Shown: positions 3,067 through 47,484 of the stretch, piece after piece
How the letters are laid out: each line of letters starts with the position of its first letter
How positions within the stretch are numbered: the first letter of the stretch is position 1
NCBI GenBank assembly: GCA_902761575.1
Contig: CACWKU010000001.1
Coordinates: 22,435-86,434, forward strand
Source: an uncultured bacterium
Lineage (GTDB): Bacteria > Verrucomicrobiota > Kiritimatiellia > RFP12 > UBA3636
DNA length: 64,000 bases
Direction: 5' to 3'
The notes under the pieces: model-generated
Database searches by the model: none
Told to the model about the DNA's origin: nothing
What the model saw: the letters and a program-made list of their open reading frames with translations, nothing else
Program-made: the position numbers and the translations under genes

Positions 3067-3125
3067 ATTCTAGGCGTTGCCCCGTTTCGAAGATAGGGAC
3101 ACGGAACGCGGAAACAAGTAAATTT
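3067..3125 (-). promoter_or_regulatory. promoter of the left-edge SGNH gene: -10 TAGAAT plus upstream ATTTACTTG element 43 nt away
   Basis: rc ATTCTA at 3067-3072. Element ACAAGTAAATTT at 3114-3125. One member of the 11-copy promoter family. Confidence 0.5.
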
Positions 3126-3203
3126 CATTCATTCGCCCGAATCCAACCCGCGGCGCGAAGCGAACGGGTTGCCTCGCGTTCGGCCCGGTCTCCGCGTTCC
3201 CTA

Positions 3204-5243: not shown

Positions 5244-5248
5244 GGGAT

Positions 5249-10795: not shown

Positions 10796-10883
10796 CGTGA
10801 GCCTCGTGCTTTGGTTGCGTGCCCTTTCCGCACGCGTGCCGAATCCGGCCACGCGATGGCGATGGCTCCGTTCGACACCGCGA

Positions 10884-10942
10884 ATCATACCGCCGCGCCC
10901 GCCCGTTCGGCTAGGTAGATTCGCGGCGGATATCAGTAAAGA
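10884..10942 (-). promoter_or_regulatory. promoter of the giant esterase gene: -10 TATGAT plus upstream TTTACTGATA element
   Basis: rc ATCATA at 10884-10889. Element CAGTAAAGA at 10934-10942. Confidence 0.5.
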
Positions 10943-10963
10943 GACGGCTATACGCGCACTCGC

Positions 10964-19524: not shown

Positions 19525-19591
19525 GGTTCGCTCCCGGCTACGGGTTGCCTGGTCGGGCGAACGCGACGACGTCCCCCGCCACGAGTCCGGA

Positions 19592-19648
19592 ATCATAGTG
19601 CATCCGGCCTTGCGACGGTAGGGACGGCGCGGCCAAAAATGGGTAAAT
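19592..19648 (-). promoter_or_regulatory. promoter of 17155..19524: -10 TATGAT plus upstream ATTTACCCATTTTTG element
   Basis: rc ATCATA at 19592-19597. Element AAAAATGGGTAAAT at 19635-19648. Confidence 0.5.
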
Positions 19649-19694: not shown

Positions 19695-21764
19695 CTACTT
19701 GACGATGATGATCGTGCCAAGGACCGGGCCGAACGTGTATTTCCCGTTGCCCTTCGCGGCGAAGCTCCAAAGCCCCGACCCGGGCGGCACGTCGCCCTCG
19801 AACGCCAGCCGGGGCGTGCCGTCCACGCGACTGGCCGTGAACGCCGTGACGGCGGGGTTGTGCGAATACGTCGCCAGGTTCTCCGGATCCGTGATCGTGA
19901 ACGTCGCGCCGGGCGCGAACGTGAGTCCGGCGGGGAAATCCGCGTACCGGCCCGCGAACAGGTCCGCGCACGAGGCGCGCAGGGAGTTCGTCACCGTGAC
20001 CGCGATGTTGGTGGCCCCTGCCGGGTCCGTCACGGCGCCCGCGCCCGCGAACGAGGAGAGAACGATCGAGTCGGCGCCCTCCGGGAGCCGCAGCGTCGCG
20101 CCGTACTCCACGCGCACGGACGTGTTGCTCGGCACGACGCCGTCCGTCTCGGCATGGAGCGTCCCCGACTCGACCGCTATGCCGTAAAACGTGTTGGTGG
20201 CATAGAGGAAGAGATCGTGAGTCCCGCGCTTCACCAGTTCGCCGCCCAGCCCCGCGTTGTCGGAGAGCGTGAGCGCGCATTCGTAGCGCGTAGCGCGGTT
20301 GTAGCTCTCCACATACGCCTTCGCGTTGTCGCTGTAGTCGCATCCGCGCGAGGTGACAACGACCCGCGAATGCGTCTTCGTTTCGTAGTCGTATTCGACG
20401 TAGGCGCTCGCGCCCCAGCCGGTCTCGTCCTCGAACACGATGCGCGCGGGGCCGAAATATGGCTCCGTCGTGTAGTCCCCCTCGGTCGGCAGAGCGACGG
20501 ACGCGACGCCCTTTCCCGTCGGCGCGGCAAACGAAAAAGGCATATGACTCACGGGGTTGTTTCCGGTCAATTCCGACGTGTCGATGACGAGGCCTTTCTT
20601 CCAGACGACGAAATGGCTGGGATTGCCCTTGTAGAAGTCCGCATGAGTCGGCCCAACCCCCGTCCAGTCGCTCGCCATCGTCGGCATCAGCGTTCCGCCG
20701 TCGGCGTTGACGGTAATGAGCGAAGCCGCGCCGGCAGCCCGGTGCTTGAAGAAACGCGCGGCCTTTACCGTCGCGCCGTCCTTCACGTTGAACACGTTTG
20801 TGGAAATCGTTCCGTTCCCGCCGCCAAACCGAAGCGTCTCGGTCGTAAGCAGCGTCCCCTCGCCCGACACCGTGACGTCGGAACAGCCACCGTAATCGCT
20901 AAGAAGAAAGCGCTGGGTCTGTCCGCCTTGCGTAACGCACGTGTCGTTCGTGCCGCCGGCCAGGTGGAACACGGCCGTTCCGGCGCGACTGGCGTGCACG
21001 GCGCTCTTGCTCCCGCCCTCCAGTTTGAAGAGCCCGCCCGTCTGGATAAAGCTGCCAAAACTGCCGGCGGTATGCGCGACATGGACGTTGTTGCTCACGT
21101 ACGCTTCGCCGCCCGACATGGCCCAGTGCCCTATGTCCGTGGCATTCATGCCGACTGCCGTTTCACCCTTCGCGACAAGGATGCCGCCCGTCTGGTGGAA
21201 CACGCCATAGCCGTCGTTTCCAACGCGAACCTTGTTGAGAAGCGTGTGCCCGTCGCCCATCAGAGACCGGCTTCCGCCTTTCACGATGAACCAATCGCGG
21301 AACACGCGCGATGCCGTGCTGATCATTTGCATAAGACCTTGGTCGATTTGCACACCGCACGCGAGGTCGACATTGCCGTTTAGGTACAGTACGCCCGTCC
21401 CCCTCTTGCGGAACAAGATGTCCGACGTGGTGGTCGAGCCGCGGGTCAAGGTTCCGTTGAGACGCAATTCGTTTGATCCGGCGGTTTCGATGTAGAGAGC
21501 GCCTTCCTCGATCACCACGTCGCCCGAATACTCCGTCGTCGTCGTCCGCAGCACCACCGTTCCGGCACCCCTCTTCACGACCCGCGAGAAACCGTCAATC
21601 GCCGCAACGACCGTATACTCTTCGCCGGCGTCGGCCGTCACGACGTAGTCCGTACCTTCCGCACCCTCGCTGCCGGCCCGCGCCGAGAGCGGGGCGAACA
21701 ACGTGCACGATGCGATGGTCGCCGCGAGGGTGGCGGCGGCGTTTCTCCTTGCGATGCATTTCAT
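19695..21764 (-). CDS. secreted autotransporter-associated beta-strand repeat (PATR-like) protein
   Basis: Track ORF. N-terminal signal/lipobox-like AATLAATIASC. Repeated G-rich beta-strand units (GTGVLYLNGN..., GGTLM...). Confidence 0.5.
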   Translation of the reverse strand: MKCIARRNAAATLAATIASCTLFAPLSARAGSEGAEGTDYVVTADAGEEYTVVAAIDGFSRVVKRGAGTVVLRTTTTEYSGDVVIEEGALYIETAGSNELRLNGTLTRGSTTTSDILFRKRGTGVLYLNGNVDLACGVQIDQGLMQMISTASRVFRDWFIVKGGSRSLMGDGHTLLNKVRVGNDGYGVFHQTGGILVAKGETAVGMNATDIGHWAMSGGEAYVSNNVHVAHTAGSFGSFIQTGGLFKLEGGSKSAVHASRAGTAVFHLAGGTNDTCVTQGGQTQRFLLSDYGGCSDVTVSGEGTLLTTETLRFGGGNGTISTNVFNVKDGATVKAARFFKHRAAGAASLITVNADGGTLMPTMASDWTGVGPTHADFYKGNPSHFVVWKKGLVIDTSELTGNNPVSHMPFSFAAPTGKGVASVALPTEGDYTTEPYFGPARIVFEDETGWGASAYVEYDYETKTHSRVVVTSRGCDYSDNAKAYVESYNRATRYECALTLSDNAGLGGELVKRGTHDLFLYATNTFYGIAVESGTLHAETDGVVPSNTSVRVEYGATLRLPEGADSIVLSSFAGAGAVTDPAGATNIAVTVTNSLRASCADLFAGRYADFPAGLTFAPGATFTITDPENLATYSHNPAVTAFTASRVDGTPRLAFEGDVPPGSGLWSFAAKGNGKYTFGPVLGTIIIVK

Positions 21765-26947: not shown

Positions 26948-27035
26948 GACTTGACTTCTCCTTCTCGCCGCCGTTCGGGCGTCGCACGGACGGTCTCGCG
27001 GAACGGTCGCCCCCGCCCGCGCGCCACGAACCAGA

Positions 27036-27092
27036 ATGATAGAGGATTCCGGACGGCGGGACAAGGGATGAATCACGCAGATTCAAGTAAAA
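27036..27092 (-). promoter_or_regulatory. promoter of the beta-galactosidase-like gene: -10 TATCAT plus upstream TTTTACTTG element
   Basis: rc ATGATA at 27036-27041. Element CAAGTAAAA at 27084-27092. Confidence 0.5.
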
Positions 27093-27103
27093 CCGCGAGA
27101 CAT

Positions 27104-27144
27104 CTCCCTCGCGTGTCGTGGTGGCACCCCGCCACGCGAGGGAG
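27104..27144 (-). terminator. 12-bp-stem hairpin CTCCCTCGCGTG / CACGCGAGGGAG downstream of the 2097-aa gene stop, followed on the sense strand by TTTT
   Basis: Loop contains a half-copy of the palindrome (GTGGTGGCACCCCGCCAC). Confidence 0.45.
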
Positions 27145-27173
27145 GCGCGCGGCTCGCTTCGTCGGTCGCGCGG

Positions 27174-30100
27174 CTATTCCGGCATGCGCACCCAGACCCG
27201 GAAGAAGCGGCTGTCGGCGTTCGGCGCGGTCCAGACCTCGTTCGTGAGGAAGGGCTTGCCCTCTATGGTGTAGACGCGCTTGGCGCCGAGGTCCGGATGC
27301 CAGGAGATCTCCGGCTCGTCGCCGGGCACGAGGATGTCCGCGAGGAAGCGCGAGAGCGCATCGAGCGGGTTCAGGCCCGCGACGAACTCCTCCCAGAGCG
27401 TGTCGCCCTTGCCCGACGGCAGCGGCTTCAGCGCCTCGTAGCCGCTGGTCGACCCGATGCCGTGGAAGTCGATCCACGCCTCCCATTCGCCCTTCGTCGC
27501 CTCCGGAATCCACTGCACGCAGTCGAGGAAGCCGCGGTCTTCGCCGTCGGCCATTCCGGAGTCCTTCGCGTAGGTCCAGCGCAGCGTGTGCGCCCCCTCC
27601 CCCTCGACGGCGAACGACGCCCGCTCCCACTTCGTCCGCCCGTCGAGACGCGCCTTCTCGACGCCGTCGACGAGAAACGCAAGGTGGTCCCAGTCGCGAT
27701 AGCCGCTGTCGTCGCGCTCGCACGAGGCGCGCCAGCGGAAATCGATCTGTCCCGGTCCTTCGACCGTCGTCTCGATCCAGCTTTCGCCGTTGTCGCCGGG
27801 CGACGCGGAGGTCGCGCGGTGGACGCCGTCCGCCGAGTCCTCGGTCGCCTCGGGAACCCACGGATCGTCGTCCCCGGTCGTGAAGGCGAGCTGCGGCATG
27901 TTGACCGCCGTCGCGAGCCCGAGCGTCGAGCCGAGCGCCGGAACGCCCGCCCCCGAACGGCCCGCGAGGTTCTCCGAGACAACGAAGTAGTAGTAGGTCT
28001 TCCCGGGCTCGACCGTCACGTCGGTCCACGAAAGGCCCTCCGTCGTCCCGAGCTCCTCCGCCGCCGCGAGGTCGGGCGACGTCCCGCGGCAGACGCGGTA
28101 GGAGTCCGCCGTCTCCACGGCGTCCCACGAGAGCGCGATGCCCGCGCCTTCCTGCGCCGCCGCGAGGCCGTCCGGCGCCTGCGCCACGTAGACATGGACG
28201 ATCGTCGCGGTCGCGACCTCGCTCGCCCAATCGCCGCGCACCACGGCGATCGCCTTCACCGTCGTCGTCTCAAGGATCGAAAACTTGACGGAAGTCGCGC
28301 TGTTCGTCGCCGGGTCGGAACCGTCCACCGTGTGGTAGATCTTCGCGTCCGGATCGGTGCACGTGAGCATCACCGACTGCGAGTTCTTGTTCGCGAACTG
28401 CGTTCCGTCCGGCGGATCGATGACGGGCGTCGCCGGTACGCCGTATTCGTAGCAGCCCATGTCCACCGCCGCGTGCGCGACGCGCGGATTGCCGGCGAGG
28501 TCCGTCTTCCCCGCCGCCCACGACGTGTCGCCCGCGTCGACGCACGGCGCCACCGCGCGCACGCGGTAGTCGCCGTTCGCCGCGTCGAAGAAGAGGTCCG
28601 CCGCCGACGCGACGATATTGCTAGTCCCGACGGTTTCCGTGTCGAGGCAGGAATAGTCGACGTTGCACGTCGCGGCATGGACTTCGGTTCCGACCGGTAC
28701 ATTCTCGACGAAATTGCCGACAATGACGCAGTTTGTCGCGACGCATTTTCCGATGGCGCATGCCCCCAGACTAATGGCGTTCGTATTCGCGGCAACGGTG
28801 CAGTTCGCAAGCGAACATTTGTAGGCGGCACTGGGTGCACAACCGCTGTGATCGTCGTTCCAGACGACATTGCCGGCAATCAGGCAGTTCTCCATGTCGG
28901 CTTCGTACGCCGCGCCCCATTTCCGGCTGACATTACCGGTCAAAATGCAGTTCTTCAATGTCGCAGTCAGAACGGCCGACCCCCCACCCGAACAGTATCC
29001 ATTACGGAACATGAATCCTTCCATTGTCACGAGCCCGCGGAGGGTTTCGTAGTAATAGGCGCTCGGATCCGTCGGCTGATACGCCGCCATCTGGATACAG
29101 CGCCGGAGCCCTTGACCGTCGATGATCGTCGTCGCGGGACCGTTTGCGCTTCGAATGCGCAGGTGTGCGCTTTTCCAGTTCACGATGGAACTGGAAGCCT
29201 GCGCATCGCCCGTATAGACGCCGTCCGCCACGACGATTTCGTCGCCGTCCGCCGCCCAGTCGATGGCATTCTGGATGGTCGCCTTCGCCGTTTCCCAGGA
29301 GAGGCCGTCGTTCGCATCGTCGCCCGTCGCCTGCGCGACGTATTGCGTCGCCGCCGCGTAGTGGGTGGCCCATTCGTAGCAACCCATGTCGGTCCCGACG
29401 CCGATCCACCGCGAGTGGCCATCGAGGTCGGTTCCAAGCTTGGCCTCGGTTGTCAGTCCGCCCGCGTCGATGCACGGCGAGCCCGCCGTGAGCCGGTAGT
29501 CGCCGTTCGCCGCGTCGACGAAGAGCGGATCGGCGTCGATGTTGCCCGAGCCGGAGACGGCCGAACCGAAGCAGGAATAGGTCGCGGTGGAATTGTAGAT
29601 ATCGTTTGCGGCTCCGCTCGTGTAGGCGTTTCCGTAGACGATGCAGGATTCGAGCGTGCAGAAGTCGCAACCGCCGCCGCCGGGCTTGCTGGAAGAACCG
29701 TAGACGGCCCGGTTGTCCACAATCGTGCACCGGACCGCATCGCAGCTGCCAAGTCCGCCGCCCGTCGTGGCGGCGACGATGTTGTTCGCCAGATTGTCCG
29801 CAATCAAGCAATCTTCCAGCCGGGAATTCATGGCGCCGCCCCCGCCGGCGGACGAAACGTTGTTGGAAACGATGCATCGAAAGGCAATGCTGCATTGAAG
29901 TCCCCCGCCGTAGCCGCGGAACGAAGGGTCGTCGTCTTTCCCGGCGTAGTTCCCCGTCACGATGCACGCTTCCAGAATTCCGCCGCGAACGCCGGCTCCG
30001 TGGTCGTTCCGGCCGTTCCGCAACGTAAAGCCGACAAGCGTCGTTTTCACGGCATCGGTCCTTTCGGCACCTAGCGTCGCGCAGCGGTTCGTGCCGCCGC

Positions 30101-33100
30101 CGTCGACGATGGTCTTCTCCGCGCCTTCGACGCTGCGGATGACGATGTCCTTGTTCCTTGCGACGAACGGTTCGTAGACGCCGTTCGTGACGAGGACCGT
30201 GTTGCCCGCGACGGTGCGGTCCGCCGCGTTCTGGATCGTCCGCAGCGCGTCGTCCCACGAACGCCCCGTGTTCTCGTCATCGCCGCGTTCCGCGTCGACG
30301 TACCAGACCGTTTCCGCGGGTTCCGGATCTTCGCAGACAAGACGGAAGCCGACGTCGCTGTATTTGGTAGAAGCGCCGTCTTGGATGCGAAAGGCCGAAC
30401 GGCAACGATTGGCCGCGAACTTCCATCCGCCGCCGCGCCTCGAACGATGCGTTCCGGAACCGGCCCCCGCGGGATTGACCGCGGGTCCGCCGTCCAATTC
30501 GGCATACCAGTCGAGGCACCATTCGTAAACGTTGCCGTGCATGTCGAAAAGGCCCCATCGGTTCGGAAGATAGGACCCGACCGCTGCATGGTGGTCGTTC
30601 CCCCGGTTGTCGACGTATCGTCCGAGTTCCGCCAGATTGGCGCTGTAGCCCTCCGCTGATTCCAGATTCTTTCCAGAGTTCAAGGAGGATTCTGTCCCCG
30701 CGCGGCAGGCATATTCCCACTGCGCTTCGGTCGGGAGGTCGAAGCCGTCCAGGCCCGTCTTCGCGCGGAGGACGCCGAGGAAGCTCGAAGCGTCCACGGC
30801 GCTGCTCGCCGGGAAGTTCGTTCCCGCGTCGTCGCCGCGGATCATGTCGTAGGAAACCGTCTCGATCGGGTGGGTTCCTCCGAGATTCTGCGCCACGTTC
30901 GTTCCCATCACGAGTTCCCATTGCTTCTGCGTCACCTCGAAAACGCCGGCGTAGAAGCCGCGCGAGAGCGTGACGCGGTGGAGCGTCTCGTTGTCCTGAC
31001 GGCCTAGCTCGTCCTCCGGGCTGCCCATCCAGAACGAGCCCTCCGGCACATTGCGGAGGACGAGTTTCGTCGTCTTGTATTCCTCGGTCCAGCCGCCCGC
31101 GGGAACGTCGGAGAGGTAGGAGACCGGATAGGAGGTCGCGTTCGTTCCACCCGAGAGGTCGACGACGAGGAAGCGGGTCTCGTCGACCGGATCGATGCCG
31201 AACGGATAGACGAACGTGCCCTCGTAGTTGTTCTTGCCGGTCACGCGGACGCCCGCCGTGCCGACGTCCACGTTGTCGACGTATTCGACGTCGTAGTTCT
31301 CCGCGCCGAGGATGTCCGGCCAGCCGTCGCGGATGTGGACCTCGGGCGTCTTCGGCGTTCCGTCCCACACCTGGTCCGGAACGACGCACATCATCGAGGG
31401 GTCGATCCGCTTCTTCCGGACGGTGAGCGTCGCGGCGTTCGTGACGGCGGGATAGCCCGGCGCCGTCGCGACGACCCAGACCGGATGCTCGCCCGCGTCC
31501 GTGAACGACGGCGCCTCCGCCGTGAACGGGCCTTCCGCGGAAAGACCGTAGAGAATCGTCGCCTCCGCGCCGGGGAAGTCCGCCGTCACGGAGAGCGCGT
31601 TCGGGCCGCCGTTGTAGACGACATCCGTCCCCTCGACCTTGAGCCACGACTCCGGTCCCGCCTCGTAGGCGCCGATGTCCACGTGCGCGCCCTGCACGCG
31701 CGCGTTGCCCCAGAGGTCGGAGTCGCTCACCGCGTTCGCGTCGCTTCCCGCGTCGATGCAGGGCGACGAACCGAGCAGGCGGAAGTCGCCGGCAGCCTCG
31801 TCCGCGAACTTCGGGAACGCGACGATGTTCCCTTCGCCCTCCTTCAGCGACGTGAGGCAGCAGTGGTCGAGCGTGCACGCCGCCACGTCCGCTGCGATGC
31901 CGCCCACCGTGTTCCCCGTCACGATGCAGTTGTAGACCTTGCAGTCGTAGAGCCCTCCGGCGGGAGCCCCGGCAACGGCCTCGTTCCCGATGACCGTGCA
32001 GTTATAGAGGTCGCACTGGTAGGCACCTCCCGCGGCGGCGGTTCCGTCGGACGACAAAGACGCGTTTCCGAGAATCAGGCAGTTTACGAGTTTACAGCCG
32101 CCCGCGCCGCCGACCGTTTTCTCCGCATTCAGGCATTTCGTGGTCGTGCAATCCTGGATGACGCAGTTTTCCACGATACCGTGCGAAACTCCTCCTAGGT
32201 TCGTGAACAAGCCGTTTGTAATCGTAAAACCGACGAGCGTCGCAACGCGATCCGCCGTCCTTCCGTCGAGAGAAGCCGAAAGTTTTGCGCAACGGTATTT
32301 GCCTTCTCCGTCGAGAATCGTCTTTTCCGGTCCGTTCACACTTTTGATCAGGAGCTTGCCGCTGGTAGCATGGCAGTCGAGAACCATGTTTCCCGAGACC
32401 CTTTTGTATGTTCCGTCGTTCACGAGAACCGTGTCCCCGTCGATCGCCTCGTCCACCGTGGATTGGATGGACTTCTTCGCCGCGCTCCAGGAGAGACCGT
32501 CGTTCGAGTCGTTTCCGGAGGCGGCGTCCACGTGCCACGTCACGGGTTCACGGTATTCGTAGCAGCCGGCGTCCACGATTCCGTTCACGATGCGCCGACT
32601 TCCGCGAAGATCGTAATTCGTCGGAACCAATTCGTTCGTACCCGCGTCGACGCACGGCGATTCCGGGCGGAGACGGTAGACGCCGGCCGCGGCGTCGACG
32701 AACGGCGATTCGGAAAGGACGCCGTTGTTCGAGCCAGGAAGAACAACTTCGGCAAACGAGTTTGTGGCGGAAAAACTGGAGGAAACAAGCGATGCGGATC
32801 CTGTTTCGTTGCCGAACACGACGCAGTTGGCCAGGACGGAATCCGAAAACACGGCGCCAGATCCGTCAAAACCGCCATTGTTCGAAAACGTGCAATTGAA
32901 AGCGGTCGAATTCCGGACGAGGCATTGCAAAGCCCTGTTTCCGACGACCAGGCAATTGTCCATTCGGACTGTGTGGAGGACGACTTTGGAGTTCAAAGAC
33001 GTTCCCTTCACAATGCACTTCCTCAGTTTGGTCCAAGCTACTCCTCCGGTGTCTTGATGCAATCCGTTCTGCAACGTGAATCCGTCGAAAAGCAGGCAAT

Positions 33101-33467
33101 GGTCCATCCAGTCATTTTGATGGGCCGTGTTCGTTCCCTTGGCGACGCGGCGCTGACCATCGGCGTCGATGATCGTGACGAGAGGGCCGTCCGTGCTGCG
33201 GACCGTAGCAGAACGCCCATTGGAATTATAGACGGCACCAACGGAGTCCGCCGTCTCCTTGTAGGTTCCCGGGCCGACGAGGATCAAGTCGCCGTCGGAG
33301 CAGGAAGTCACCGCCTTTTGGATCGTTTTGAAGGGCTTTGCGGAAGTGCCTTCGTTCGAGTCGGAACCCGAAGAGGCGGAAACGTACCAGTTCTTCGCGA
33401 ACCCGGAGGGCGCGAAACCGGCGAGAAGAAGAAGGAACGAGACTGCGGGGAGGCGCGAGCGGAGCAT
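27174..33467 (-). CDS. 2097-aa secreted protein: four right-handed parallel beta-helix modules, internal FGE-sulfatase (SUMF1-like) domain, Ig/Fn3-like domains, unknown C-terminal domain
   Basis: Track ORF with signal peptide MLRSRLPAVSFLLLLAGFAPSGFA. Four module starts have the form W(Y/H)V(D/S)A..G(D/N)D.N.G(T/L)SW..A..(T/S)IQ.A.D.A..GD.(I/V)LV, each ending ...FVDAA.GDYRL...SPC(I/V)DAG. The FGE-like stretch includes HGNVYEWCLDWY...RGGGW. Confidence 0.8.
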   Translation of the reverse strand: MLRSRLPAVSFLLLLAGFAPSGFAKNWYVSASSGSDSNEGTSAKPFKTIQKAVTSCSDGDLILVGPGTYKETADSVGAVYNSNGRSATVRSTDGPLVTIIDADGQRRVAKGTNTAHQNDWMDHCLLFDGFTLQNGLHQDTGGVAWTKLRKCIVKGTSLNSKVVLHTVRMDNCLVVGNRALQCLVRNSTAFNCTFSNNGGFDGSGAVFSDSVLANCVVFGNETGSASLVSSSFSATNSFAEVVLPGSNNGVLSESPFVDAAAGVYRLRPESPCVDAGTNELVPTNYDLRGSRRIVNGIVDAGCYEYREPVTWHVDAASGNDSNDGLSWSAAKKSIQSTVDEAIDGDTVLVNDGTYKRVSGNMVLDCHATSGKLLIKSVNGPEKTILDGEGKYRCAKLSASLDGRTADRVATLVGFTITNGLFTNLGGVSHGIVENCVIQDCTTTKCLNAEKTVGGAGGCKLVNCLILGNASLSSDGTAAAGGAYQCDLYNCTVIGNEAVAGAPAGGLYDCKVYNCIVTGNTVGGIAADVAACTLDHCCLTSLKEGEGNIVAFPKFADEAAGDFRLLGSSPCIDAGSDANAVSDSDLWGNARVQGAHVDIGAYEAGPESWLKVEGTDVVYNGGPNALSVTADFPGAEATILYGLSAEGPFTAEAPSFTDAGEHPVWVVATAPGYPAVTNAATLTVRKKRIDPSMMCVVPDQVWDGTPKTPEVHIRDGWPDILGAENYDVEYVDNVDVGTAGVRVTGKNNYEGTFVYPFGIDPVDETRFLVVDLSGGTNATSYPVSYLSDVPAGGWTEEYKTTKLVLRNVPEGSFWMGSPEDELGRQDNETLHRVTLSRGFYAGVFEVTQKQWELVMGTNVAQNLGGTHPIETVSYDMIRGDDAGTNFPASSAVDASSFLGVLRAKTGLDGFDLPTEAQWEYACRAGTESSLNSGKNLESAEGYSANLAELGRYVDNRGNDHHAAVGSYLPNRWGLFDMHGNVYEWCLDWYAELDGGPAVNPAGAGSGTHRSRRGGGWKFAANRCRSAFRIQDGASTKYSDVGFRLVCEDPEPAETVWYVDAERGDDENTGRSWDDALRTIQNAADRTVAGNTVLVTNGVYEPFVARNKDIVIRSVEGAEKTIVDGGGTNRCATLGAERTDAVKTTLVGFTLRNGRNDHGAGVRGGILEACIVTGNYAGKDDDPSFRGYGGGLQCSIAFRCIVSNNVSSAGGGGAMNSRLEDCLIADNLANNIVAATTGGGLGSCDAVRCTIVDNRAVYGSSSKPGGGGCDFCTLESCIVYGNAYTSGAANDIYNSTATYSCFGSAVSGSGNIDADPLFVDAANGDYRLTAGSPCIDAGGLTTEAKLGTDLDGHSRWIGVGTDMGCYEWATHYAAATQYVAQATGDDANDGLSWETAKATIQNAIDWAADGDEIVVADGVYTGDAQASSSIVNWKSAHLRIRSANGPATTIIDGQGLRRCIQMAAYQPTDPSAYYYETLRGLVTMEGFMFRNGYCSGGGSAVLTATLKNCILTGNVSRKWGAAYEADMENCLIAGNVVWNDDHSGCAPSAAYKCSLANCTVAANTNAISLGACAIGKCVATNCVIVGNFVENVPVGTEVHAATCNVDYSCLDTETVGTSNIVASAADLFFDAANGDYRVRAVAPCVDAGDTSWAAGKTDLAGNPRVAHAAVDMGCYEYGVPATPVIDPPDGTQFANKNSQSVMLTCTDPDAKIYHTVDGSDPATNSATSVKFSILETTTVKAIAVVRGDWASEVATATIVHVYVAQAPDGLAAAQEGAGIALSWDAVETADSYRVCRGTSPDLAAAEELGTTEGLSWTDVTVEPGKTYYYFVVSENLAGRSGAGVPALGSTLGLATAVNMPQLAFTTGDDDPWVPEATEDSADGVHRATSASPGDNGESWIETTVEGPGQIDFRWRASCERDDSGYRDWDHLAFLVDGVEKARLDGRTKWERASFAVEGEGAHTLRWTYAKDSGMADGEDRGFLDCVQWIPEATKGEWEAWIDFHGIGSTSGYEALKPLPSGKGDTLWEEFVAGLNPLDALSRFLADILVPGDEPEISWHPDLGAKRVYTIEGKPFLTNEVWTAPNADSRFFRVWVRMPE

Positions 33468-33681
33468 GGCGGAATCCTTGCCCCGGGGTGTAGAGCCGAA
33501 GGCGGGTTCGGGGCGAAAGAGCCTACCTTCGGTGTCTGCCGTCCGTATGAAACGGCAGGTGCCGAGGCGGGGATGTTTGCCCCGTCACGGCGCGACGGGG
33601 CGTAGGATACCAGAACCGCCCCATGAATACAAGCGCAGTTTGCGGCAAAGCGGGCGCGCGCGAAGGTCCTGGCGGAGCCCG

Positions 33682-33950
33682 CTAGTCCGCGAGCCATTCA
33701 TGGGCCGGGACGACGCGGATGGCTCGGCCGTCCTCGCGGGCGAAGTCGCGCTGCCTCAGCGTGACGATCGTCCCTTCGCGCAGGCCGAACTGCCGCAGGG
33801 CGCCGAGAATCCCGGCCAGTTCGCGCTCGCGGTTCTCGGACACAAGCTCGTAGCAGACCTGCTCCGCGGAGAACGCGCCGGAGGCGTCGGCGAAGACGAA
33901 GTCGCACTCGGAGGCGTCGTCCGCCCAGTAGAAGCGCCGCGCGCTCCGGC
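33682..33950 (-). pseudogene. truncated C-terminal fragment of a COG1373/DUF4143 AAA+ ATPase homolog (no start codon, in-frame stop just upstream)
   Basis: Translation RRFYWADDASECDFVFADASGAFSAEQVCYELVSENRERELAGILGALRQFGLREGTIVTLRQRDFAREDGRAIRVVPAHEWLAD matches the conserved C-terminal block of COG1373 ATPases (..YWRD.SG.EVDFV..). An AT-rich junction at 33985-34040 is adjacent. Confidence 0.5.
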
Positions 33951-34096
33951 GGCGGATCCGCGCCCAGGCGCAACGGAGACGACCATTATTTTACCACGAT
34001 TGCAATATTTTTTTTCTATTGTTGAAATATCTGCCGCGCGTCCAGTTGCTTTCCGAATCAAGGGCGAATCGGACGCGAAGGGCGCGAGGGCGCGTC

Positions 34097-34121
34097 GTGG
34101 CGGGGTGCGACACCCCGCCAC
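34097..34121 (-). terminator. GC-rich palindromic hairpin GTGGCGGGGTGCGaCACCCCGCCAC 8 nt downstream of the GH36-like gene stop
   Basis: Copy of the recurring 24-nt palindrome family. No U-tract. Confidence 0.45.
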
Positions 34122-34128
34122 GGCATCC

Positions 34129-35724
34129 TCAACGAGGCGCGATCTTGACCCAGACGAAGTCGAGCTTGTCGCGGACGGCGACCGTGAGGACGCCGCCTTC
34201 GATCCGCGCTTCGCCGCGACCGCCGATGACGGTCGGCTCCAGGCCGTCCGAGGGCAGGTAGTCGGCGAGGGGCAGGGAGAACTCCTCGCGCGCGTCCAGC
34301 TCGCGGAAGAGAAGCGCCGTTCCCGCCGTTCCGTCGCGGGACGCCGACACGAAGCCCGTCCAGGAGAGGCCGTCCGGCGCGCTCCCGACGGGATGGACGT
34401 AGCCCTCGTGGATCGCGTCGCGCTCCCGCTTCCATCGGGCGATGAGGGGCTTCCACGCCTCGACCGTCTCCCGCGAGAGGTTCTGGATCTCGAACCATCC
34501 GAGCGGCGAGGAGTACATCGCGATCGCGAAGATCGCGTCGCGCGGCCAGCGCAGGGGCGCGAGCGAGTCGCCATCGGGATACAGTTCCGGCTGGCGCTCG
34601 GGGTTCAGGACCTCCATCCGCAGACGCACGGGATCGACGGCGTGCGCGAGGCCCCAGAGGTTCCGCAGCGTGCGGTGCGGCCACCAGAGGCGGCCGTCGC
34701 CCTCGCGGACGTAGCGGTTTTCCACGAAAACGGGGCCGATGCGCGGGAACGCGAAGTAGCCGGGGCGCCGCCCCGCCGTGACGTCGAGGTCGACGGTGAT
34801 GCGGCCGCCCGACCCGTCCATCAGCCGGTCCATCAGCATCCCCTGGCGCGCGAATGCGAGAGGGGTCGGCGTGTCCATCGAGTCGAACTTGAAGTAGTCG
34901 ATGCCGAAAGAGCGGTGGAGGGACAGGAGGAAGTCGGCGTCCCGCCGCCAGTTCGCCGCCTCGTCGGAGGAGTCCGGCCCGAACCACAGCCCGAACTTCA
35001 GGCCCTTCGCGCGCGCCTCCGCGATGAGCGGCGCGAGCCCGCCCGGGAACCGGACGGGGTCGACGTCCCAGAACCCCGCCTCCTCCCACCAGGAGCCCCA
35101 GCGCCCCTTTTCGCCCCTCGCGACGCGGACGGAATTGGCCGTGTAGCCCTTCTCCCAGCCGTCGTCGATCTGGATCACGTCCACGCCGAGCTCGGCCCCC
35201 GCCGCGATCTCGCCCCGCAGGAAGCGCTCGTTGACGCAGGCGTCCTGGTGCCCGTCGCCCCAGGTGTTGGAGAGGAAGAGCCCGTCGCGCCCCGCGACGT
35301 ACGGGCGGAACGACCGGTGGAAGTCCGTGGCCGCGCGGACGCGCCCCGCCCTCCCGCCGCGATAGCCGACGCGGAAGCACCGGTAGGGACTGGAAAGGAT
35401 GCGCAGCATCTGCCGCCCGGGATCCACGTGCCAGTCGGGCGAATCGTCCGCCCGCGCGTGCGGCAGCGGCGCCTGGCGGAAGAAGGCGACGCCCTCCCCG
35501 CCGAGCGAATCCTCGAGGAAGAGCGCCGGTCCGGCAACGTCGAACGGCCTCTCGCAGCGGGAAAGCAGGCGCTCCTTCTCGAAGTAGAGGTCATCGTGCC
35601 GGTCCGTGTCGTCCACCAGCTGGACCTCGACCAGCCGCGGATGCTCCCACGTGTAGCGGAACTCGCCGCCCTCCTCCGCTCCGTACGGAAGCGCACGGAC
35701 CTCGGGCACGACGGAATCGGGCAT
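34129..35724 (-). CDS. alpha-galactosidase-like glycoside hydrolase (clan GH-D, GH36/melibiase-like)
   Basis: Track ORF. Motifs VIQIDDGWEKG and DYFKFDSMD. 14-nt gap to the upstream CDS. Confidence 0.55.
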   Translation of the reverse strand: MPDSVVPEVRALPYGAEEGGEFRYTWEHPRLVEVQLVDDTDRHDDLYFEKERLLSRCERPFDVAGPALFLEDSLGGEGVAFFRQAPLPHARADDSPDWHVDPGRQMLRILSSPYRCFRVGYRGGRAGRVRAATDFHRSFRPYVAGRDGLFLSNTWGDGHQDACVNERFLRGEIAAGAELGVDVIQIDDGWEKGYTANSVRVARGEKGRWGSWWEEAGFWDVDPVRFPGGLAPLIAEARAKGLKFGLWFGPDSSDEAANWRRDADFLLSLHRSFGIDYFKFDSMDTPTPLAFARQGMLMDRLMDGSGGRITVDLDVTAGRRPGYFAFPRIGPVFVENRYVREGDGRLWWPHRTLRNLWGLAHAVDPVRLRMEVLNPERQPELYPDGDSLAPLRWPRDAIFAIAMYSSPLGWFEIQNLSRETVEAWKPLIARWKRERDAIHEGYVHPVGSAPDGLSWTGFVSASRDGTAGTALLFRELDAREEFSLPLADYLPSDGLEPTVIGGRGEARIEGGVLTVAVRDKLDFVWVKIAPR

Positions 35725-36476: not shown

Positions 36477-36534
36477 ATCATACCCCCGCGCCCCAGCGGG
36501 CGAGTAGGTTCAAATCGGGCAAAAACGGGTAAAG
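36477..36534 (-). promoter_or_regulatory. promoter of the malectin-like/GH36-like operon: -10 TATGAT plus upstream CTTTACCCGTTTTTGCCCGATTT element
   Basis: rc ATCATA at 36477-36482. 23-nt element at 36512-36534. Confidence 0.55.
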
Positions 36535-36549: not shown

Positions 36550-36573
36550 GTGGCGGGGTGCGGACCCCGCCAC
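36550..36573 (-). terminator. palindromic hairpin GTGGCGGGGTGCGgACCCCGCCAC 25 nt downstream of the 36598..39927 stop
   Basis: Same palindrome family with one mismatch. Confidence 0.45.
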
Positions 36574-36597: not shown

Positions 36598-39500
36598 CTA
36601 CTTGATCCGGTAGACGTGCCGGCTGAAGCCGTCGAAGGCGTCGGAGAAGACGCCGCCCTTCGCCTGGAGGGTGCGGTTCTCGTAGAGGACCTCGACCGTG
36701 GTGTCCTGCGGGACGTCGTCCGGGAGGCGGAACGAGACCCGGGCGTTCGGGTGCGGGTTGACGTTGGCCGTGTAGATGCGGCGCTCGCTCCCGTGCCGGC
36801 GCGTGAGGCAGCGGATGTAGTTCTCGGTCTCGCTCGCGATGGCGCCGCCGCAGAGCTCGTCGGAGCAGAGGAAGTCGACGTTGTCCAGCAGCTCGCGGTT
36901 GATGTCCACGAGCGCGTCGTAGCAGCAGCGCGAGGTGGGCATGTTGACGAACCAGGAGAGGCCCGTCGCGCCGGCGGCGACACAGCCCCAGCACTGCGCG
37001 ACCTGCTCCTTGTAGGTCGGGATCCGCGGATGGAGCGAGTTCTCGCTCTCCATGAAGTACCAGCACGGCTTGCCGGGCGCGATGGAGCGCAGGACGTCGA
37101 CCTTCGAGACGACCATGTCGAGCGTGGTGCCGTCGACGGTCAGGTAGTAGTCGACCATCAGGATGTCGGTCGGGAGCCCCGCGAAGCGCCCGGAGATGCC
37201 GAGCCAGCAGTTGTTCATCTGCACGGGGTTGTAGGGGAAGAGGGCCTTCGTCCGCTTCATGAACGCCTTGCAGTCGTCGGCGTTGCGGTACTCGGGCTCG
37301 TCGAGGACGAGCCAGTTGATCACGTTCGGGCTGTCGAGCATGCCGTACATCTTCCGGCGCGACCAGTCGGTGACGGAGTTGTCCTCCCAGCGCCGGATCT
37401 CGCCCACGTCGTCGAGGGTCTGGCCCTCGCCGGTCCAGATCGTGAACTTCATGCCTTTCTGTGCCGCGTACGCGAGCGTCTTGCGGTTCATCTCGATGTC
37501 GCGGACGTTGAGGTTGTTCTGCAGGTTCAGGTACTTGAACCCGGCGTCGGCGAGGATGTCGACCGGACGCGAGGTGCCGTCGTCCATCGGCCCGTTCTCG
37601 CGGCCGATGAGGCACGGCGAGCTCATGAACACCTTCTCGCCGTCGTGGACGAGCGTGCGGGACCACTGGTTGATCTGCGTCGCGCCCTTCTTGAAGGGCA
37701 GCTTGCGGACCTCGGCCTTCCACTCGCGGCCGAGCGCGCGGACCGTGACGGCGTTGGTGCCGCAGGGCATCCCGGAGATGTCGATCGAGACCTGCTCGAA
37801 GCCGCCCTTGCCGTCCCACGCGCGGAAGTCGGCGGTCCTCTCCTCCATGTAGAAGTCGTAGTGGCCGAGGAGGAGCCCCTCGGGCGGGAGCGGATAGCCG
37901 CAGAGCGCGTTCTCGGCGGGCGTGAGCGGCGCCGTGCGCTCGGGCTTCGCGTGCGGGGTCGGCTTGCCGAGCGCGAAGTTCTCCGCGTCGCCGGACTTCG
38001 GCTTGTACTCCGTCGCGTAGGTCTTCGCGGGGTCGAAGCCGCCGGCCGGCGGGTCGACCATCTCGAGCTGCAGGTCGTCGAGCCAGATCGAGGCCTCGGT
38101 CGTGCGGTCGCGAAGGCCGGGGACGTCGAACCAGACGGGGCTGAAGATGCCGGGCGCGGGCAGGTTGGTCGTCGTGACCTCGTAGCGCGTCCATTCGGTC
38201 GTGAGGTCCACGATCCGGGCGTTGTCGGAGAGCTTCGCCTTGAACTGGACGCCGGGCTCGGACGCCTTCGCCCAGAAGGAGAGGACCGCGCTGCGGCCCT
38301 TCTGCGTGGGCGTGTTCCAGGCGAAGAAGTCGAAGCTGCGGACGAACGGCCCGATGCGCAGCCGGAGCGACTGCTTCCCGGAGTGCCTCTCGGCCGTGTC
38401 GACCATGAAGCACTTGAGGTACTTCTCCTTGTAGTCCTCGATCGAGACCTTCGACATCTCGCAGGAATTGCGGTTGCAGTAGTGCAGCGGCACGCCGTCG
38501 CCGTCGAACTCGAAGCCGGAGTTCGAGATCAGGTTCGGGCTGTCCTCGCCCTTGAGCGCGTAGATCGTGACGCGGCGCACCTCGAAGGGGCACTTGAAGT
38601 TCTCGATGCCGAGCGGGGCCCAGTGCGCGACGCCGTCGAAGCCGACGGTCTTCCTCGGCGTGGGCGCCGTGTAGTAGTTGCCCAGGACGCCGTTGAGGAA
38701 GAAGGCGTAGCCCATCATCGTCTCGCCGATCTTGCGACGCTCGAAGCGGACCGTGACCGGCTCGCCCTCCTTGAAGTTGGCGATCCAGGGGTAGGCGCTG
38801 CGCGTCGGCTGGTCGGCCACCGGCTGGTAGAGGGTCACCCCGTAGCCGTCGCTGCGGACGCCGAACGTGCCGTAGTCGCCGGTCATGACCGCCCAGTGGT
38901 AGTCGCCGTCCTTCGGGTCCTTGATCTCGCTCCACGCGGGGTAGACCGCGATCTCGGCCTCGGCCGCGAACTCGTCCGGCAGCTCGCCCTTCCACTGGAT
39001 GCCGTCGCCGGTGCCGCCGCTCGGGATGCGCACCGCGCCGTCCTTCACCTCGATGTCCTTCTGCGCGTGCCCGCGGAAGCTCCAGCGCTCGGCGAAGACC
39101 TTGGGCTCGGAGAAGTCGTCCTCGAAGATCGGGACCGAGAAGTCGGAGACCGGCCCGCCCGGCGCGCGGGCGGCCCCGGCGGCGTTCGCGGGCTCCTTCT
39201 TCTCGTAGCGCGGCCCCGCCTCGAGCGGCACGTCCGTCGCGCTTGCGTAGAACTTCCCCGTGACCTCCTCGTAGAGGCCGGCGACGCCGCCCTTCACGAC
39301 CGGGACGAAGCGCGCGAGCGGCTTTCCGTCCCGGTAGAACTCCGCCCCGTAGAGCGCGAGGTCGTAGCAGGCGTAGGACTTCACCGACCCGTCGTCGCAG
39401 GTCATCCCGAAGAACGAGACCGGGACCTTGCCGGCCGCGGTGCGCTCGCCCTCGAGCTTCATGTCGAAGCTGCCCCAGGTGACGTGCCGGCCGTCGTAGA

Positions 39501-39927
39501 CGATCGACACGCGGGTTCCGATGGCGGAGTCGTTCACCTCCTGGAGGCCGCAGTGGATCCACTTCTCGCGGCTCTTGCGGCCCAGGCTCGCGAACGTCTG
39601 GTAGGCCTGCGCCTCGTGCCCGCCGAGCGCGAGCTGGAAGAGGTCGCGGAAGCCCTCCGCGTCCTGCGCGTCCTCCTGGCCGAAGAAGACCGTCGTGTTC
39701 TTCGCGTGGTCGAACTTCCCGCCGAAGATCTGGTTGAACGGGCCGTCGAACCGGACGTCCATCCGGAACGTCGTCCCGGGCTGCGGCACGAGGTCGGTCT
39801 TCACGCAGCTGCCGTGCGTGGACTTGACGTATTCGACGCGGTAGTCGAAGTCCGCGGCGGCGGCGGACACGGCGGCGGCGGCGAGGCAGGCCGCGACGGC
39901 GCGGGCGTTTCGTTCGATGGCGTTCAT
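36598..39927 (-). CDS. 1109-aa secreted putative glycoside hydrolase of unrecognised family with CBM4/9-like domain; paralog of 43645..46467
   Basis: Track ORF with a signal peptide. C-terminal ~400 aa shared with 43645..46467 (MPCGTNAVTVRA.GR.W, TIWTGE/ILWTGD, PVQMNN, CW(Y/F)F, YENRTL). Confidence 0.55.
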   Translation of the reverse strand: MNAIERNARAVAACLAAAAVSAAAADFDYRVEYVKSTHGSCVKTDLVPQPGTTFRMDVRFDGPFNQIFGGKFDHAKNTTVFFGQEDAQDAEGFRDLFQLALGGHEAQAYQTFASLGRKSREKWIHCGLQEVNDSAIGTRVSIVYDGRHVTWGSFDMKLEGERTAAGKVPVSFFGMTCDDGSVKSYACYDLALYGAEFYRDGKPLARFVPVVKGGVAGLYEEVTGKFYASATDVPLEAGPRYEKKEPANAAGAARAPGGPVSDFSVPIFEDDFSEPKVFAERWSFRGHAQKDIEVKDGAVRIPSGGTGDGIQWKGELPDEFAAEAEIAVYPAWSEIKDPKDGDYHWAVMTGDYGTFGVRSDGYGVTLYQPVADQPTRSAYPWIANFKEGEPVTVRFERRKIGETMMGYAFFLNGVLGNYYTAPTPRKTVGFDGVAHWAPLGIENFKCPFEVRRVTIYALKGEDSPNLISNSGFEFDGDGVPLHYCNRNSCEMSKVSIEDYKEKYLKCFMVDTAERHSGKQSLRLRIGPFVRSFDFFAWNTPTQKGRSAVLSFWAKASEPGVQFKAKLSDNARIVDLTTEWTRYEVTTTNLPAPGIFSPVWFDVPGLRDRTTEASIWLDDLQLEMVDPPAGGFDPAKTYATEYKPKSGDAENFALGKPTPHAKPERTAPLTPAENALCGYPLPPEGLLLGHYDFYMEERTADFRAWDGKGGFEQVSIDISGMPCGTNAVTVRALGREWKAEVRKLPFKKGATQINQWSRTLVHDGEKVFMSSPCLIGRENGPMDDGTSRPVDILADAGFKYLNLQNNLNVRDIEMNRKTLAYAAQKGMKFTIWTGEGQTLDDVGEIRRWEDNSVTDWSRRKMYGMLDSPNVINWLVLDEPEYRNADDCKAFMKRTKALFPYNPVQMNNCWLGISGRFAGLPTDILMVDYYLTVDGTTLDMVVSKVDVLRSIAPGKPCWYFMESENSLHPRIPTYKEQVAQCWGCVAAGATGLSWFVNMPTSRCCYDALVDINRELLDNVDFLCSDELCGGAIASETENYIRCLTRRHGSERRIYTANVNPHPNARVSFRLPDDVPQDTTVEVLYENRTLQAKGGVFSDAFDGFSRHVYRIK

Positions 39928-41203: not shown

Positions 41204-41261
41204 AGTATACCCCACGGACCGCTCGCGAAGAAAGGGCGAAATCGGGCAAAGACGGGTAAAT
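41204..41261 (-). promoter_or_regulatory. promoter of the serine-hydrolase/large-GH operon: -10 TATACT plus upstream ATTTACCCGTCTTTGCCCGATTT element
   Basis: rc AGTATA at 41204-41209. 23-nt element at 41239-41261, almost identical to 36512-36534. Confidence 0.55.
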
Positions 41262-46566: not shown

Positions 46567-47484
46567 TCAGACGACGAACGCCTTCTCCCAGCGGCGCGCG
46601 GTGTGGTCGCGGAAGAAGACGCCGTAGGACGCGCCGCCGTACCACTCGACGACCGCCGAGCGGATCGCGTTGCCGCGGCGGTTCTCGAGCGAGGCGACGT
46701 CGAACTGCGTGACCGCGGAGCCGTCGATCCCGGAGATCTGGCGCAGGCAGTCCTTGCCGCCCCACTGGAAGTCTCCGACGTGGCAGTGGCCGTAGAAGTG
46801 CGCGACGACGTTCTCCGGCAGCGGCAGCAGCGTCCCCATCAGGTCCGAGGCGCGGTTGCCGCCCGGGAAGGCGTAGTGGCTCATCGTGAAGACGGGCTTG
46901 CCGAGCGCGGCGATCGCCGCTCGCGCCCGCTCCGCGGCTCCGGGGTCGGGGTAGTCGATCCGGTTCTCGCCGTCGGTCGCGCCGCCGTGGACGCAGAACC
47001 ACGAGCCGTCCGGCGCGGCGTGGTCGGAGAAGATCGCGAGCGCCAGGTCGCCGAAGTCCGCGACGAGCAGCCAGTCGCGGACGGAGGGCGTCGTGTGCCA
47101 CTGCGTCTCCCGCAGGACGCGCTCCCGCATCGGGATCGTGACGCGCCCGCTTCCGCGGCCGCCGCCCCACCGGTGGTAGTCGAACTCGTGGTTGCCCATC
47201 GCGTACCAGACCGGCGCGTCGACCCGCGCGAGGGCCTCGACCTGCATGTCGGCCATCTCGCGCAGGTGCGCCGGATCGGTCCCCTCGGTCGTGTCGCCGA
47301 GGTAGCACACGGCGTCCACGGGAAGGCGCAGCGAGAGGAAGTCCTCCACGCCCGCGTGCATGCAGCGGCGGGCGTTCGCCGGATCGCGCTGCTGCAGGTC
47401 GGAGATGACCCAGAGGCGCCGGCGCGCGGGACGGAGCAGGCCCGCGCGGAAGTCCGCGGGCGGCGTGGCGGGGTGCGCGCTCAT
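46567..47484 (-). CDS. calcineurin-like metallophosphoesterase
   Basis: Start MSAHPATPP at 47482-47484 with ATGA overlap onto the upstream gene. Motifs GDTTEGTD, GNHEFD, GHCHVG. Confidence 0.65.
   Translation of the reverse strand: MSAHPATPPADFRAGLLRPARRRLWVISDLQQRDPANARRCMHAGVEDFLSLRLPVDAVCYLGDTTEGTDPAHLREMADMQVEALARVDAPVWYAMGNHEFDYHRWGGGRGSGRVTIPMRERVLRETQWHTTPSVRDWLLVADFGDLALAIFSDHAAPDGSWFCVHGGATDGENRIDYPDPGAAERARAAIAALGKPVFTMSHYAFPGGNRASDLMGTLLPLPENVVAHFYGHCHVGDFQWGGKDCLRQISGIDGSAVTQFDVASLENRRGNAIRSAVVEWYGGASYGVFFRDHTARRWEKAFVV

Follow-up and report, generated by a model that had tools for sequence, protein, structure and literature searches.

In a clade of rumen Kiritimatiellae, no oligomer is as strongly over-represented as the 11-base word CGTGGCGGGGT, and a GC-rich palindrome which had been described from this DNA as a REP- or terminator-like hairpin consists of two inverted copies of this word. 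Hairpins are an ordinary kind of feature; what is new is the behaviour of the word itself in a lineage of the PVC group. That this family is a word and not a mobile element, and at the same time that its paired copies act as hairpins at the 3′ ends of transcripts, is a joint claim for which the chances appear evenly balanced.

The window, i.e., the whole stretch of 64 kb that was analysed, matches an 82-kb rumen metagenome scaffold and is at one locus ~90% identical to RUG13889. It is rich in CAZymes and esterases, with GDSL lipases, alpha-galactosidases, GH3, an FGE-sulfatase and beta-helix proteins. In total, four full palindromes, one degenerate copy and five single arms were found in it:

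34097-34121, inverted pair GTGGCGGGGT-GCGAC-ACCCCGCCAC of 25 nt with a 5-nt loop, 7 nt past the stop codon of gene 34129-35724 (minus strand, Melibiase/alpha-galactosidase-like)
36550-36573, inverted pair GTGGCGGGGT-GCGG-ACCCCGCCAC whose loop of 4 nt reads CCGC in the mRNA, 24 nt past the stop codon of gene 36598-39927 (minus strand)
16839-16862, the exact 24-mer quoted in the original prediction, inside the nucleoside hydrolase gene 16226-17158 (minus strand)
60073-60096, inverted pair with a single mismatch, located in the left arm (GCGG...), inside the conserved hypothetical gene 59787-61496 (minus strand)
27118-27135, degenerate pair GTGGTGG-CACC-CCGCCAC (GTGGTGGCACCCCGCCAC), an exact 10-mer arm (27126-27135) with a decayed partner
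4552-4561, plus strand, single arm GTGGCGGGGT in gene 3204-5183 (minus strand), mRNA GAC CCC GCC ACG, encoding D-P-A-T
16055-16064, minus strand, single arm (ACCCCGCCAC on the plus strand) in gene 14533-16236 (plus strand), encoding H-P-A-T
47465-47474, plus strand, single arm in codons 3-7 of gene 46567-47484 (minus strand), whose product starts M-S-A-H-P-A-T
60280-60289, plus strand, single arm in gene 59787-61496 (minus strand), encoding D-P-A-T
61444-61453, plus strand, single arm close to the 5′ end of gene 59787-61496 (minus strand), encoding D-P-A-T

Compared with the original prediction, this inventory differs in several respects. The palindrome at 34097-34121 is real and does follow a minus-strand stop codon, but with its length of 25 nt and its 5-nt loop it is not the 24-mer that had been quoted. 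The copy at 36550-36573 was described correctly, being the 24-mer with a single difference in the loop. The proposed third copy within the hairpin 27104-27144 indeed includes one exact arm with a degenerate partner; however, the hairpin itself, which begins 29 nt past the stop codon of gene 27174-33467 (minus strand), is a different and longer one with a 12-bp outer stem, in which the degenerate pair is nested. Two supposed half-copies (47463-47480 and 61443-61455) are in fact exact single arms located in coding sequence and not downstream of genes. Copies had also been under-counted, as the pairs at 16839 and 60073, which were found by mismatch-tolerant and gapped searches, and the arms at 4552, 16055 and 60280 had been missed, and the exact 24-mer, proposed as the unit to be counted, occurs just once in the window. 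Both intragenic pairs are placed in minus-strand genes by GC3 periodicity together with Pfam or homologue support. Apart from the word, a promoter-like motif, TTTACCCGTnTTTGCCCGATTT, was observed twice, at 36512-36533 and at 41239-41260.

The 10-mer arm is present 13 times in the window, compared to 0.13 copies expected from an order-3 and 0.47 from an order-5 Markov model, and its z of 35 is the highest among all window 10-mers that occur at least six times. For the 9-mer arm, 14 copies were counted vs. 1.4 expected, and for the full palindrome 100 shuffles yielded an expectation of zero. Arms occur in the window about once per 4-5 kb, and roughly two-thirds of arms are paired. The 64 kb of the window are the sole unbiased sample; counts from the related loci are biased, as those loci were chosen for carrying a perfect pair. 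Across 276 kb of these related loci the arm is the commonest 10-mer.

The base that precedes the arm (position -1) lies outside every search pattern, and yet 50 of 53 single arms and 110 of 122 paired arms have a C there. This same C before single and paired arms indicates that the repeated unit is the 11-mer. Variants of the 11-mer that differ at one position are enriched ~2.5-fold (93 vs. 37.6 expected), the exact word more than 100-fold. In the window and 51 related loci together, about 50 arms are single. It is unlikely that these are decayed palindromes: the best partner had no mismatch for 122 arms, one to three mismatches for only nine, and four or more for 46, and with this bimodal distribution and so few intermediate counts the single arms are not simply remnants of pairs.

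One genome per species was scanned for GTGGCGGGGT-N2-8-ACCCCGCCAC, which yielded at least 102 loci. Among the matches listed, about half came from at least 11 species-level MAGs labeled as Kiritimatiellae, 'uncultured Verrucomicrobia' or RUG and sampled mostly from rumen, omasum or abomasum; two of these MAGs contain at least 14-16 copies of the pair each. The earlier idea of a repeated family is supported. The other matches listed fall into two groups. The first comprises isolated hairpins from unrelated bacteria, several of which are ordinary terminators with T-tracts. The second is a differently built repeat from Gemmataceae and Hydrogenedentota, a tandem GGAGACCTTCGGTC-N8-GTGGCGGGGTC[CG]GGAGACCCCGCCAC-AAC, which has its stem in common with the Kiritimatiellae word. 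Viral contigs gave four isolated matches only, and hence no link to phages. Neither the window nor four Gemmataceae/Hydrogenedens loci had a match to Rfam at its gathering thresholds. The literature search revealed neither an account of this word from Kiritimatiellota nor one of any family in that phylum that resembles uptake sequences or REPs, and a literature search by sequence returned unrelated matches only (e.g., yeast telomere repeats and primers).

The family was analysed in the window and 51 loci of the Kiritimatiellae type, which amount to ~340 kb with 62 pairs. The arms are invariant across all 62 pairs, partly by design, as the loci were retrieved with exact arms. The same pairs carry 30 different loops, which are mostly 4 nt long (48 copies), less often 5 nt (nine) or 7 nt (three), and in one copy each 3 and 16 nt. 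At least 11 species thus share exact arms, with loops and flanks that have drifted apart. The stem is often lengthened by its flanks (gcgc|...|gcgc), and subsets of copies in other MAGs are held in larger composite hairpin modules, which include none of the copies in the window. As such larger conserved flanks are confined to these subsets and absent from the window, they do not form part of the core unit.

Single arms lie mostly within genes, and 37 of them are located in called genes. In 23 of these 37, the sense strand reads ACCCCGCCAC and is phased as xAC-CCC-GCC-ACx, so that D/H/N-P-A-T is encoded; GTG-GCG-GGG-T follows as the second commonest frame. In no frame but these two do all complete codons of the word end with G or C. 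The in-frame word was seen ~30 times, whereas 0.87 occurrences are expected from the codon frequencies (89,395 codons). Furthermore, [DHN]PAT peptides are nearly always encoded by CCC-GCC-ACG, though CCG and GCG are the commoner synonyms. This choice of codons against commoner synonyms implies that it is the nucleotide word which accumulates and not the peptide, and an origin of the single arms from a D/H/N-P-A-T peptide motif is ruled out by this test.

The codon test equally excludes an origin from codon bias, and it thereby affects the reading in which the copies are ordinary terminators that resemble each other by chance, through selection for any stable GC hairpin in combination with codon bias. 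In a genome with a GC-content of 69% nearly all intergenic 3′ regions fold well, and stop codons are also followed by several hairpins from outside the family, just as this reading would have it. However, it leaves the ~100-fold enrichment of single arms and the lack of any copies in shuffled sequence without an explanation. It also does not fit with the use of a single stem core, since CGGGGT is the only core among all perfect hairpins of the type GTGG-N6...N6′-CCAC in the window and the related loci. With the codon test, the over-representation of the 10-mer and the single stem core all standing against it, this reading is effectively refuted and its probability is negligible.

Orthologues of the two intragenic pairs reveal how such copies arise. 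The pair at 16839 reads G TGG CGG GGT GCG CAC CCC GCC ACG, which encodes W-R-G-A-H-P-A-T and makes use of the rare glycine codon GGT; the reading frame of the 60073 pair matches (W-R-G-A-H-P-A-A). Homologues of the 16839 segment with identities down to 50% exhibit W-R-G-x-(D/E)-P in the same columns, with no indel. In terms of DNA, the arms are perfect in the window and RUG13889, where the loop is GCGC, and in the 74% orthologue, where it is CAGG; the 71% orthologue has one mismatch, and the 70% and 51% orthologues encode the same peptide without arms (CTGGCGCGGT..., GTGGCGCGGA GCC GAT CCC GGC). Sorted by locus, the arms of this site are perfect with other loops in L044 and L112, carry one mismatch in L115 and are missing in L113 and L114. 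The 60073 pair is perfect in its orthologues in L122 and L123 (89% and 78% identity) and absent in L124 (60%), and a protein alignment showed no insertion relative to homologues at this site. In the same gene, L122 shares the single arm at 61444, which L123 and L124 lack, while the one at 60280 is found in all four sequences, with its codons kept down to 60% identity. An orthologous arm for 16055-16064 is present in L044. As background same-codon rates are 0.57-0.85, the conservation of individual arms is not significant, and single-site conservation was therefore not used as evidence. Homologue alignments contain no indel at either of the coding pairs nor at two of the single arms. At these four coding sites, the copies arose in place by substitution and not by insertion. 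An in-frame insertion of the palindrome, similar to Rickettsia RPEs or to a MITE, was rejected, as there is no gap at W-R-G-x-x-P-A-T, and the orthologue DNA agrees with this.

Intergenic copies could be followed in close relatives as well. The pair at 36550, loop included, is kept in L103/L104 as well as in L105/L106 (relatives with ~97% and 91% nucleotide identity), and its flanks have diverged in L105/L106. The pair at 34097 is absent from the near-identical strain represented by L103/L104. This strain lacks a strain-variable block of 7.16 kb (26967-34127), at the edge of which the pair is located. In L105 (91% nucleotide identity), the orthologous site after the stop codon contains an imperfect, partly similar hairpin, whose first arm (GGATGaCGcGGCGGGccG) is identical to the window sequence at 15 of 18 positions. 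This suggests that the 34097 site was converted in place rather than being the target of a clean insertion, so that an origin in place is probable for one intergenic site, too.

The original prediction had mentioned REP elements. In the REP reading, the copies would be mobile hairpins brought to new sites by a REP-associated tyrosine transposase (RAYT), and any stabilization or termination of transcripts would be a side effect. Elements which spread in this manner are present or absent as blocks with loop and stem inherited together, and their genomes carry a cognate RAYT gene (for a Y1 HUH transposase), typically flanked by REPs. Several features resemble those of REPs: the palindrome is GC-rich and starts with GTGG, similar to the GT[AG]G head of REPs, many copies exist per genome, most of them are extragenic and near the 3′ ends of genes, and the palindrome is sometimes held in composite hairpin clusters which recur at several loci in related MAGs. 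In REPs, the palindrome is adjoined by a conserved 5′ head, GT[AG]G. In the Kiritimatiellae word, GTGG at the start of the arm belongs to the stem and no other stem core has a GTGG head; a GTGG-headed REP family with variable stems was accordingly dismissed, as there is one core only. What stands against REPs above all is that coding copies and single arms were gained by substitution without any indel, that the arm is abundant as a single copy, and that 21% of the pairs lie in coding sequence. In addition, loop and stem are not inherited together, as is evident from 30 loops among 62 pairs. REPs usually differ between species, whereas the arms of this family are identical across 11 species. 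A phmmer search with E. coli RayT among ORFs of at least 60 aa in the window and the fetched loci gave a best E of 0.9, which is a weak negative, and the genes of the window include no transposase domain. With coding copies, no spread as a block, loops uncoupled from stems, identity across species and no RAYT-like ORF in the fetched DNA, membership in the REPs is not supported, and we consider this explanation improbable.

For the word as a unit that evolves in place, the position of the paired copies is informative. Genes were called with a crude GC3-based caller, which assigned 79% of the DNA as coding. Of 62 pairs, 22 (35%) lie within 60 nt past a called stop codon; such positions make up 2.4% of all bases, which corresponds to an enrichment of ~15-fold. 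Stop codon and pair are 7-54 nt apart in these cases (median ~18 nt). Coding sequence, in which pairs are depleted, still holds 13-14 of the 62 (21%), and the remaining 27 are found in genes that were not called, at the ends of contigs or elsewhere between genes. The original statement on a position just downstream of genes is supported for intergenic copies, which are close to stop codons. Only ~3-4 of the 62 pairs are near a start codon without being near a stop codon. Each of the pairs at 34097 and 36550 sits between a stop codon and an AT-rich, promoter-like segment of the next, co-directional gene; this segment follows the 34097 pair, and the 36550 pair is upstream of the promoter-like motif at 36512-36533.

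Minimal hairpins of the family fold at -20 to -25 kcal/mol. With values of -25 to -40 kcal/mol for nearly every 60-mer in DNA of such high GC-content, hairpin energy cannot discriminate gene ends. As the original prediction had stated, no U-tract follows the hairpins at 34097 and 36550, and a scan for consensus terminators reports neither of them. A canonical intrinsic terminator was therefore discarded as a candidate: the hairpin is there, the T-run is absent. With respect to transcription, the loop is oriented as CCGC in six cases and as GCGG in two, numbers which are too low for an interpretation.

Proximity to stop codons, location ahead of the next promoter-like segment and strong hairpins make a role of the paired copies at the 3′ end of transcripts plausible. 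Once transcribed, a pair would fold into a hairpin of 10-12 G+C base pairs, which might either end the transcript or protect its 3′ end, and might insulate the next promoter. A U-tract would not be required for this, as the hairpin could possibly act as a barrier to exonucleases following Rho-dependent termination. In view of work on mycobacterial RNA polymerase, it is doubtful whether U-tract-less hairpins terminate transcription on their own. Termination by the hairpin itself and a protection of the 3′ end once Rho has terminated transcription are mechanisms of equal merit.

Since conservation extends to the sequence of the arm, beyond its ability to pair, some machinery would be expected to read the word. 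Sequence-biased uptake of DNA, followed by recombination, could maintain it by a molecular drive, as for the DNA uptake sequences DUS and USS. In systems of that kind, competent cells favour DNA with the word, for which they have a specific receptor such as the minor pilin ComP. We infer by analogy that biased uptake is the one known process which gives rise to the whole anatomy observed here. The likeness rests on an asymmetric, over-represented word of ~11 nt in codon-friendly coding frames, on the enrichment of the encoded peptides, on pairs at gene ends, on under-representation in genes, on conservation across species and on gain by substitution. Speaking against uptake are a density of arms that is lower than for DUS and USS, which occur about once per kb, and a share of paired arms that is probably higher than reported for DUS or USS. 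No competence genes are present in the window. Known uptake sequences are likewise under-represented in genes, their dyad pairs serve as terminators, and their frame bias tracks preferred codons (PMC2817400; 10.1101/2025.10.24.684340). An uptake-type drive appears to be the most likely reason for the maintenance of the word, although such an explanation is put forward only tentatively. In its most specific form it would make CGTGGCGGGGT the self-recognition uptake sequence of an uncultured clade of rumen Kiritimatiellae and the first one outside the Proteobacteria, which by analogy to DUS and USS is conceivable but doubtful. A less specific version of this claim would be that a new sequence-specific drive writes CGTGGCGGGGT into genomes.

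The identical 10-bp stem in the differently built repeat of Gemmataceae and Hydrogenedentota could, on the other hand, mean that a hairpin-binding factor is shared, rather than uptake. The word would then be a sequence-specific binding site, with selection for protein binding keeping the 11-mer or its hairpin. A factor for 3′-end processing or termination and a nucleoid-associated protein have been considered as binders, as well as a signal for recombination or repair. Conservation of the arm sequence beyond pairing, an 11-mer that is the same in single and paired copies, and the strong preference of pairs for positions after stop codons would all be in line with such a site. However, a rigid dimer on double-stranded DNA is hard to reconcile with arms that are spaced by 3-7 nt, and once by 16 nt, and a binder of RNA hairpins would leave single intragenic arms with no evident role. 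To our knowledge, besides uptake receptors (and, where words are shorter, Chi) there is no factor with hundreds of 11-nt sites that are distributed partly over the ends of genes and partly over codon-compatible frames of coding sequence. A binding site unrelated to uptake, with any of these binders, is regarded as rather unlikely.

Should the word be merely a reused terminator stem, it would still provide a useful annotation mark for the ends of operons in this clade. If it is instead kept by biased uptake or another process that reads the sequence, the biology of uptake sequences would reach beyond two proteobacterial families. The group newly covered would be that of the abundant uncultured glycan degraders of the rumen, 'dialects' of the word would offer a marker by which gene flow and the boundaries between species could be tested among MAGs, and a word maintained by drive would have been recruited as the main gene-end hairpin of a high-GC genome. 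A true uptake sequence would furthermore mean that bacteria of the PVC group are naturally transformable and take up DNA with a sequence bias, the pairs having been co-opted as U-tract-less terminators. For the annotation of repeats, a note of caution is that a REP-like palindrome can be two copies of a word which evolves in place.

Of the known systems, HIP1 (GCGATCGC) of cyanobacteria is likewise a highly over-represented word which occurs in coding and non-coding DNA and is conserved across species, and its cause is unsettled. HIP1 is, however, an 8-bp palindrome and not concentrated as hairpin pairs after stop codons, whereas the Kiritimatiellae word is an asymmetric 11-mer. The 'I-shaped' terminators without a U-tract, which were proposed for high-GC bacteria such as mycobacteria, share with the pairs a stable GC hairpin soon after the stop codon and the lack of a T-run. 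Termination by U-tract-less hairpins is disputed. In I-shaped terminators each hairpin has its own sequence, while the Kiritimatiellae pairs reuse one stem sequence. REPs and REPINs with their RAYTs, known from Enterobacteria, Pseudomonas and Stenotrophomonas, are similar in being short, GC-rich palindromes with a GTGG-like head in many, mostly extragenic copies near the 3′ ends of genes, and REPs can stabilize the upstream mRNA. They differ from the Kiritimatiellae word, which also occurs singly and in coding sequence, arises by substitution, does not conserve its loops and is identical across species.

The largest number of likenesses is found with DUS of Neisseriaceae (core GCCGTCTGAA) and USS of Pasteurellaceae (core AAGTGCGGT). 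These are, like the word described here, short, over-represented and non-palindromic (9-12 nt), and they occur in both orientations. They are rarer but present in genes, where they lie in preferred-codon frames and the encoded peptides are enriched (PMC2817400; 10.1101/2025.10.24.684340). Inverted pairs with variable spacers are in both cases found in intergenic DNA, for DUS and USS at terminators, and for the Kiritimatiellae pairs with a terminator activity that is putative. Both kinds of words are common to related species and are gained by substitution instead of insertion. Differences exist in that the Kiritimatiellae word is sparser (about one per 4-5 kb), has a larger share of paired copies, is very G+C-rich and forms pairs without U-tracts. 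Moreover, it belongs to another phylum, the Kiritimatiellota of the PVC group.

A 7.16-kb block of the window, 26967-34127, is missing in the contigs L103 and L104, which stem from near-identical strains (~97% nucleotide identity). This block contains the following features:

34097-34121, full palindrome (inverted pair of the over-represented word)
33698-33973, small ORF
gene for a 2097-aa FGE-sulfatase/beta-helix protein
AT-rich promoter-like stretch
27104-27144, longer hairpin with one exact arm (a single 10-nt copy of the word) and a degenerate partner

Both hairpins are located close to the edges of the variable block, with the one at 34097 lying 7 nt inside one edge and the one at 27104-27144 lying ~140 nt inside the other. 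At the junction in L103 and L104, the ribosome binding site of the next gene is joined directly to the stop codon of the alpha-galactosidase gene, across a GAG microhomology. In L105, a 91%-identical relative, the intervening block is shorter and includes a 230-aa FGE-sulfatase gene.

A second sequence, TTTACCCGTnTTTGCCCGATTT, is repeated in the window at 36512-36533 and 41239-41260 (both minus strand), where zero copies would be expected by chance, and a related sequence is found at ~27072-27094 (minus strand). The motif is located upstream of genes and is followed by TATGAT or TATCAT ~30 nt further on. The orthologous sites in L103 and L105 retain it as well. TTTACCCGTnTTTGCCCGATTT probably is a promoter or operator element of the window's lineage.

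At 19520-19600 of the window, a long imperfect hairpin, which starts ~70 nt downstream of a minus-strand gene (19695-21764), includes CCCCCGCCAC, a variant differing from the arm at one position. This hairpin may be related to the palindrome family, having diverged from it, or may instead be an unrelated terminator. The word statistics also yielded other repeated 10-mers. The probable source of several of these, such as AGGAGAGGCC and GTCGGGATGG, are three large, consecutive paralogous GDSL-lipase/Ig-like-domain genes within 3-12616:

3-2975, first paralogue
5249-10888, second paralogue
10964-12616, third paralogue

The palindrome of related MAGs is in some cases combined with further modules into a composite hairpin cluster, which occurs at several loci and in several species. 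One such module, shared by the loci L002, L028, L050, L064 and L086, is a second hairpin, GAAGCCGCCGCGCCGCG-GGA-CGCGGCGCGGGCGGCTTC; another, shared by L031, L032, L062, L074, L094 and L100, is the flank GCGCGTGATTTGCGGCGCGGGCGGTCGG. Neither of the two is present in the window. At 20-55 of locus L042 the palindrome hairpin is lengthened to a 17-bp stem (GTGGCGGGGTGCGGGGCGAGCCCCGCACCCCGCCAC), with a nested second palindrome in place of the usual loop; a similar form near 1665 of L086 is interrupted by the end of the locus. On a single contig of MAG RGIG1497 (L076), two palindrome copies (168-191 and 6297-6320) in direct orientation are separated by 6.1 kb, with downstream flanks being 94% identical over 250 nt. 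This arrangement may reflect duplication of a promoter region, or the two copies may mark the ends of a segment that was duplicated.

A 10-bp stem identical to that of the palindrome is also part of a distinct repeat of ~55 nt, GGAGACCTTCGGTC-N8-GTGGCGGGGTC[CG]GGAGACCCCGCCAC-AAC, found in Gemmataceae (L018 7180-7420; L009, L056, L090, L093) and Hydrogenedentota (L019, L022, L037, L040, L091), frequently in tandem arrays. In a variant at L018 7120-7150 both stem arms are altered (GTGGCCCGGT / ACCGGCCCAC), with pairing remaining intact at all but one position. Rfam contained no match for this repeat. With its conserved loop and flanks, the ~55-nt repeat is more REP- or MITE-like.
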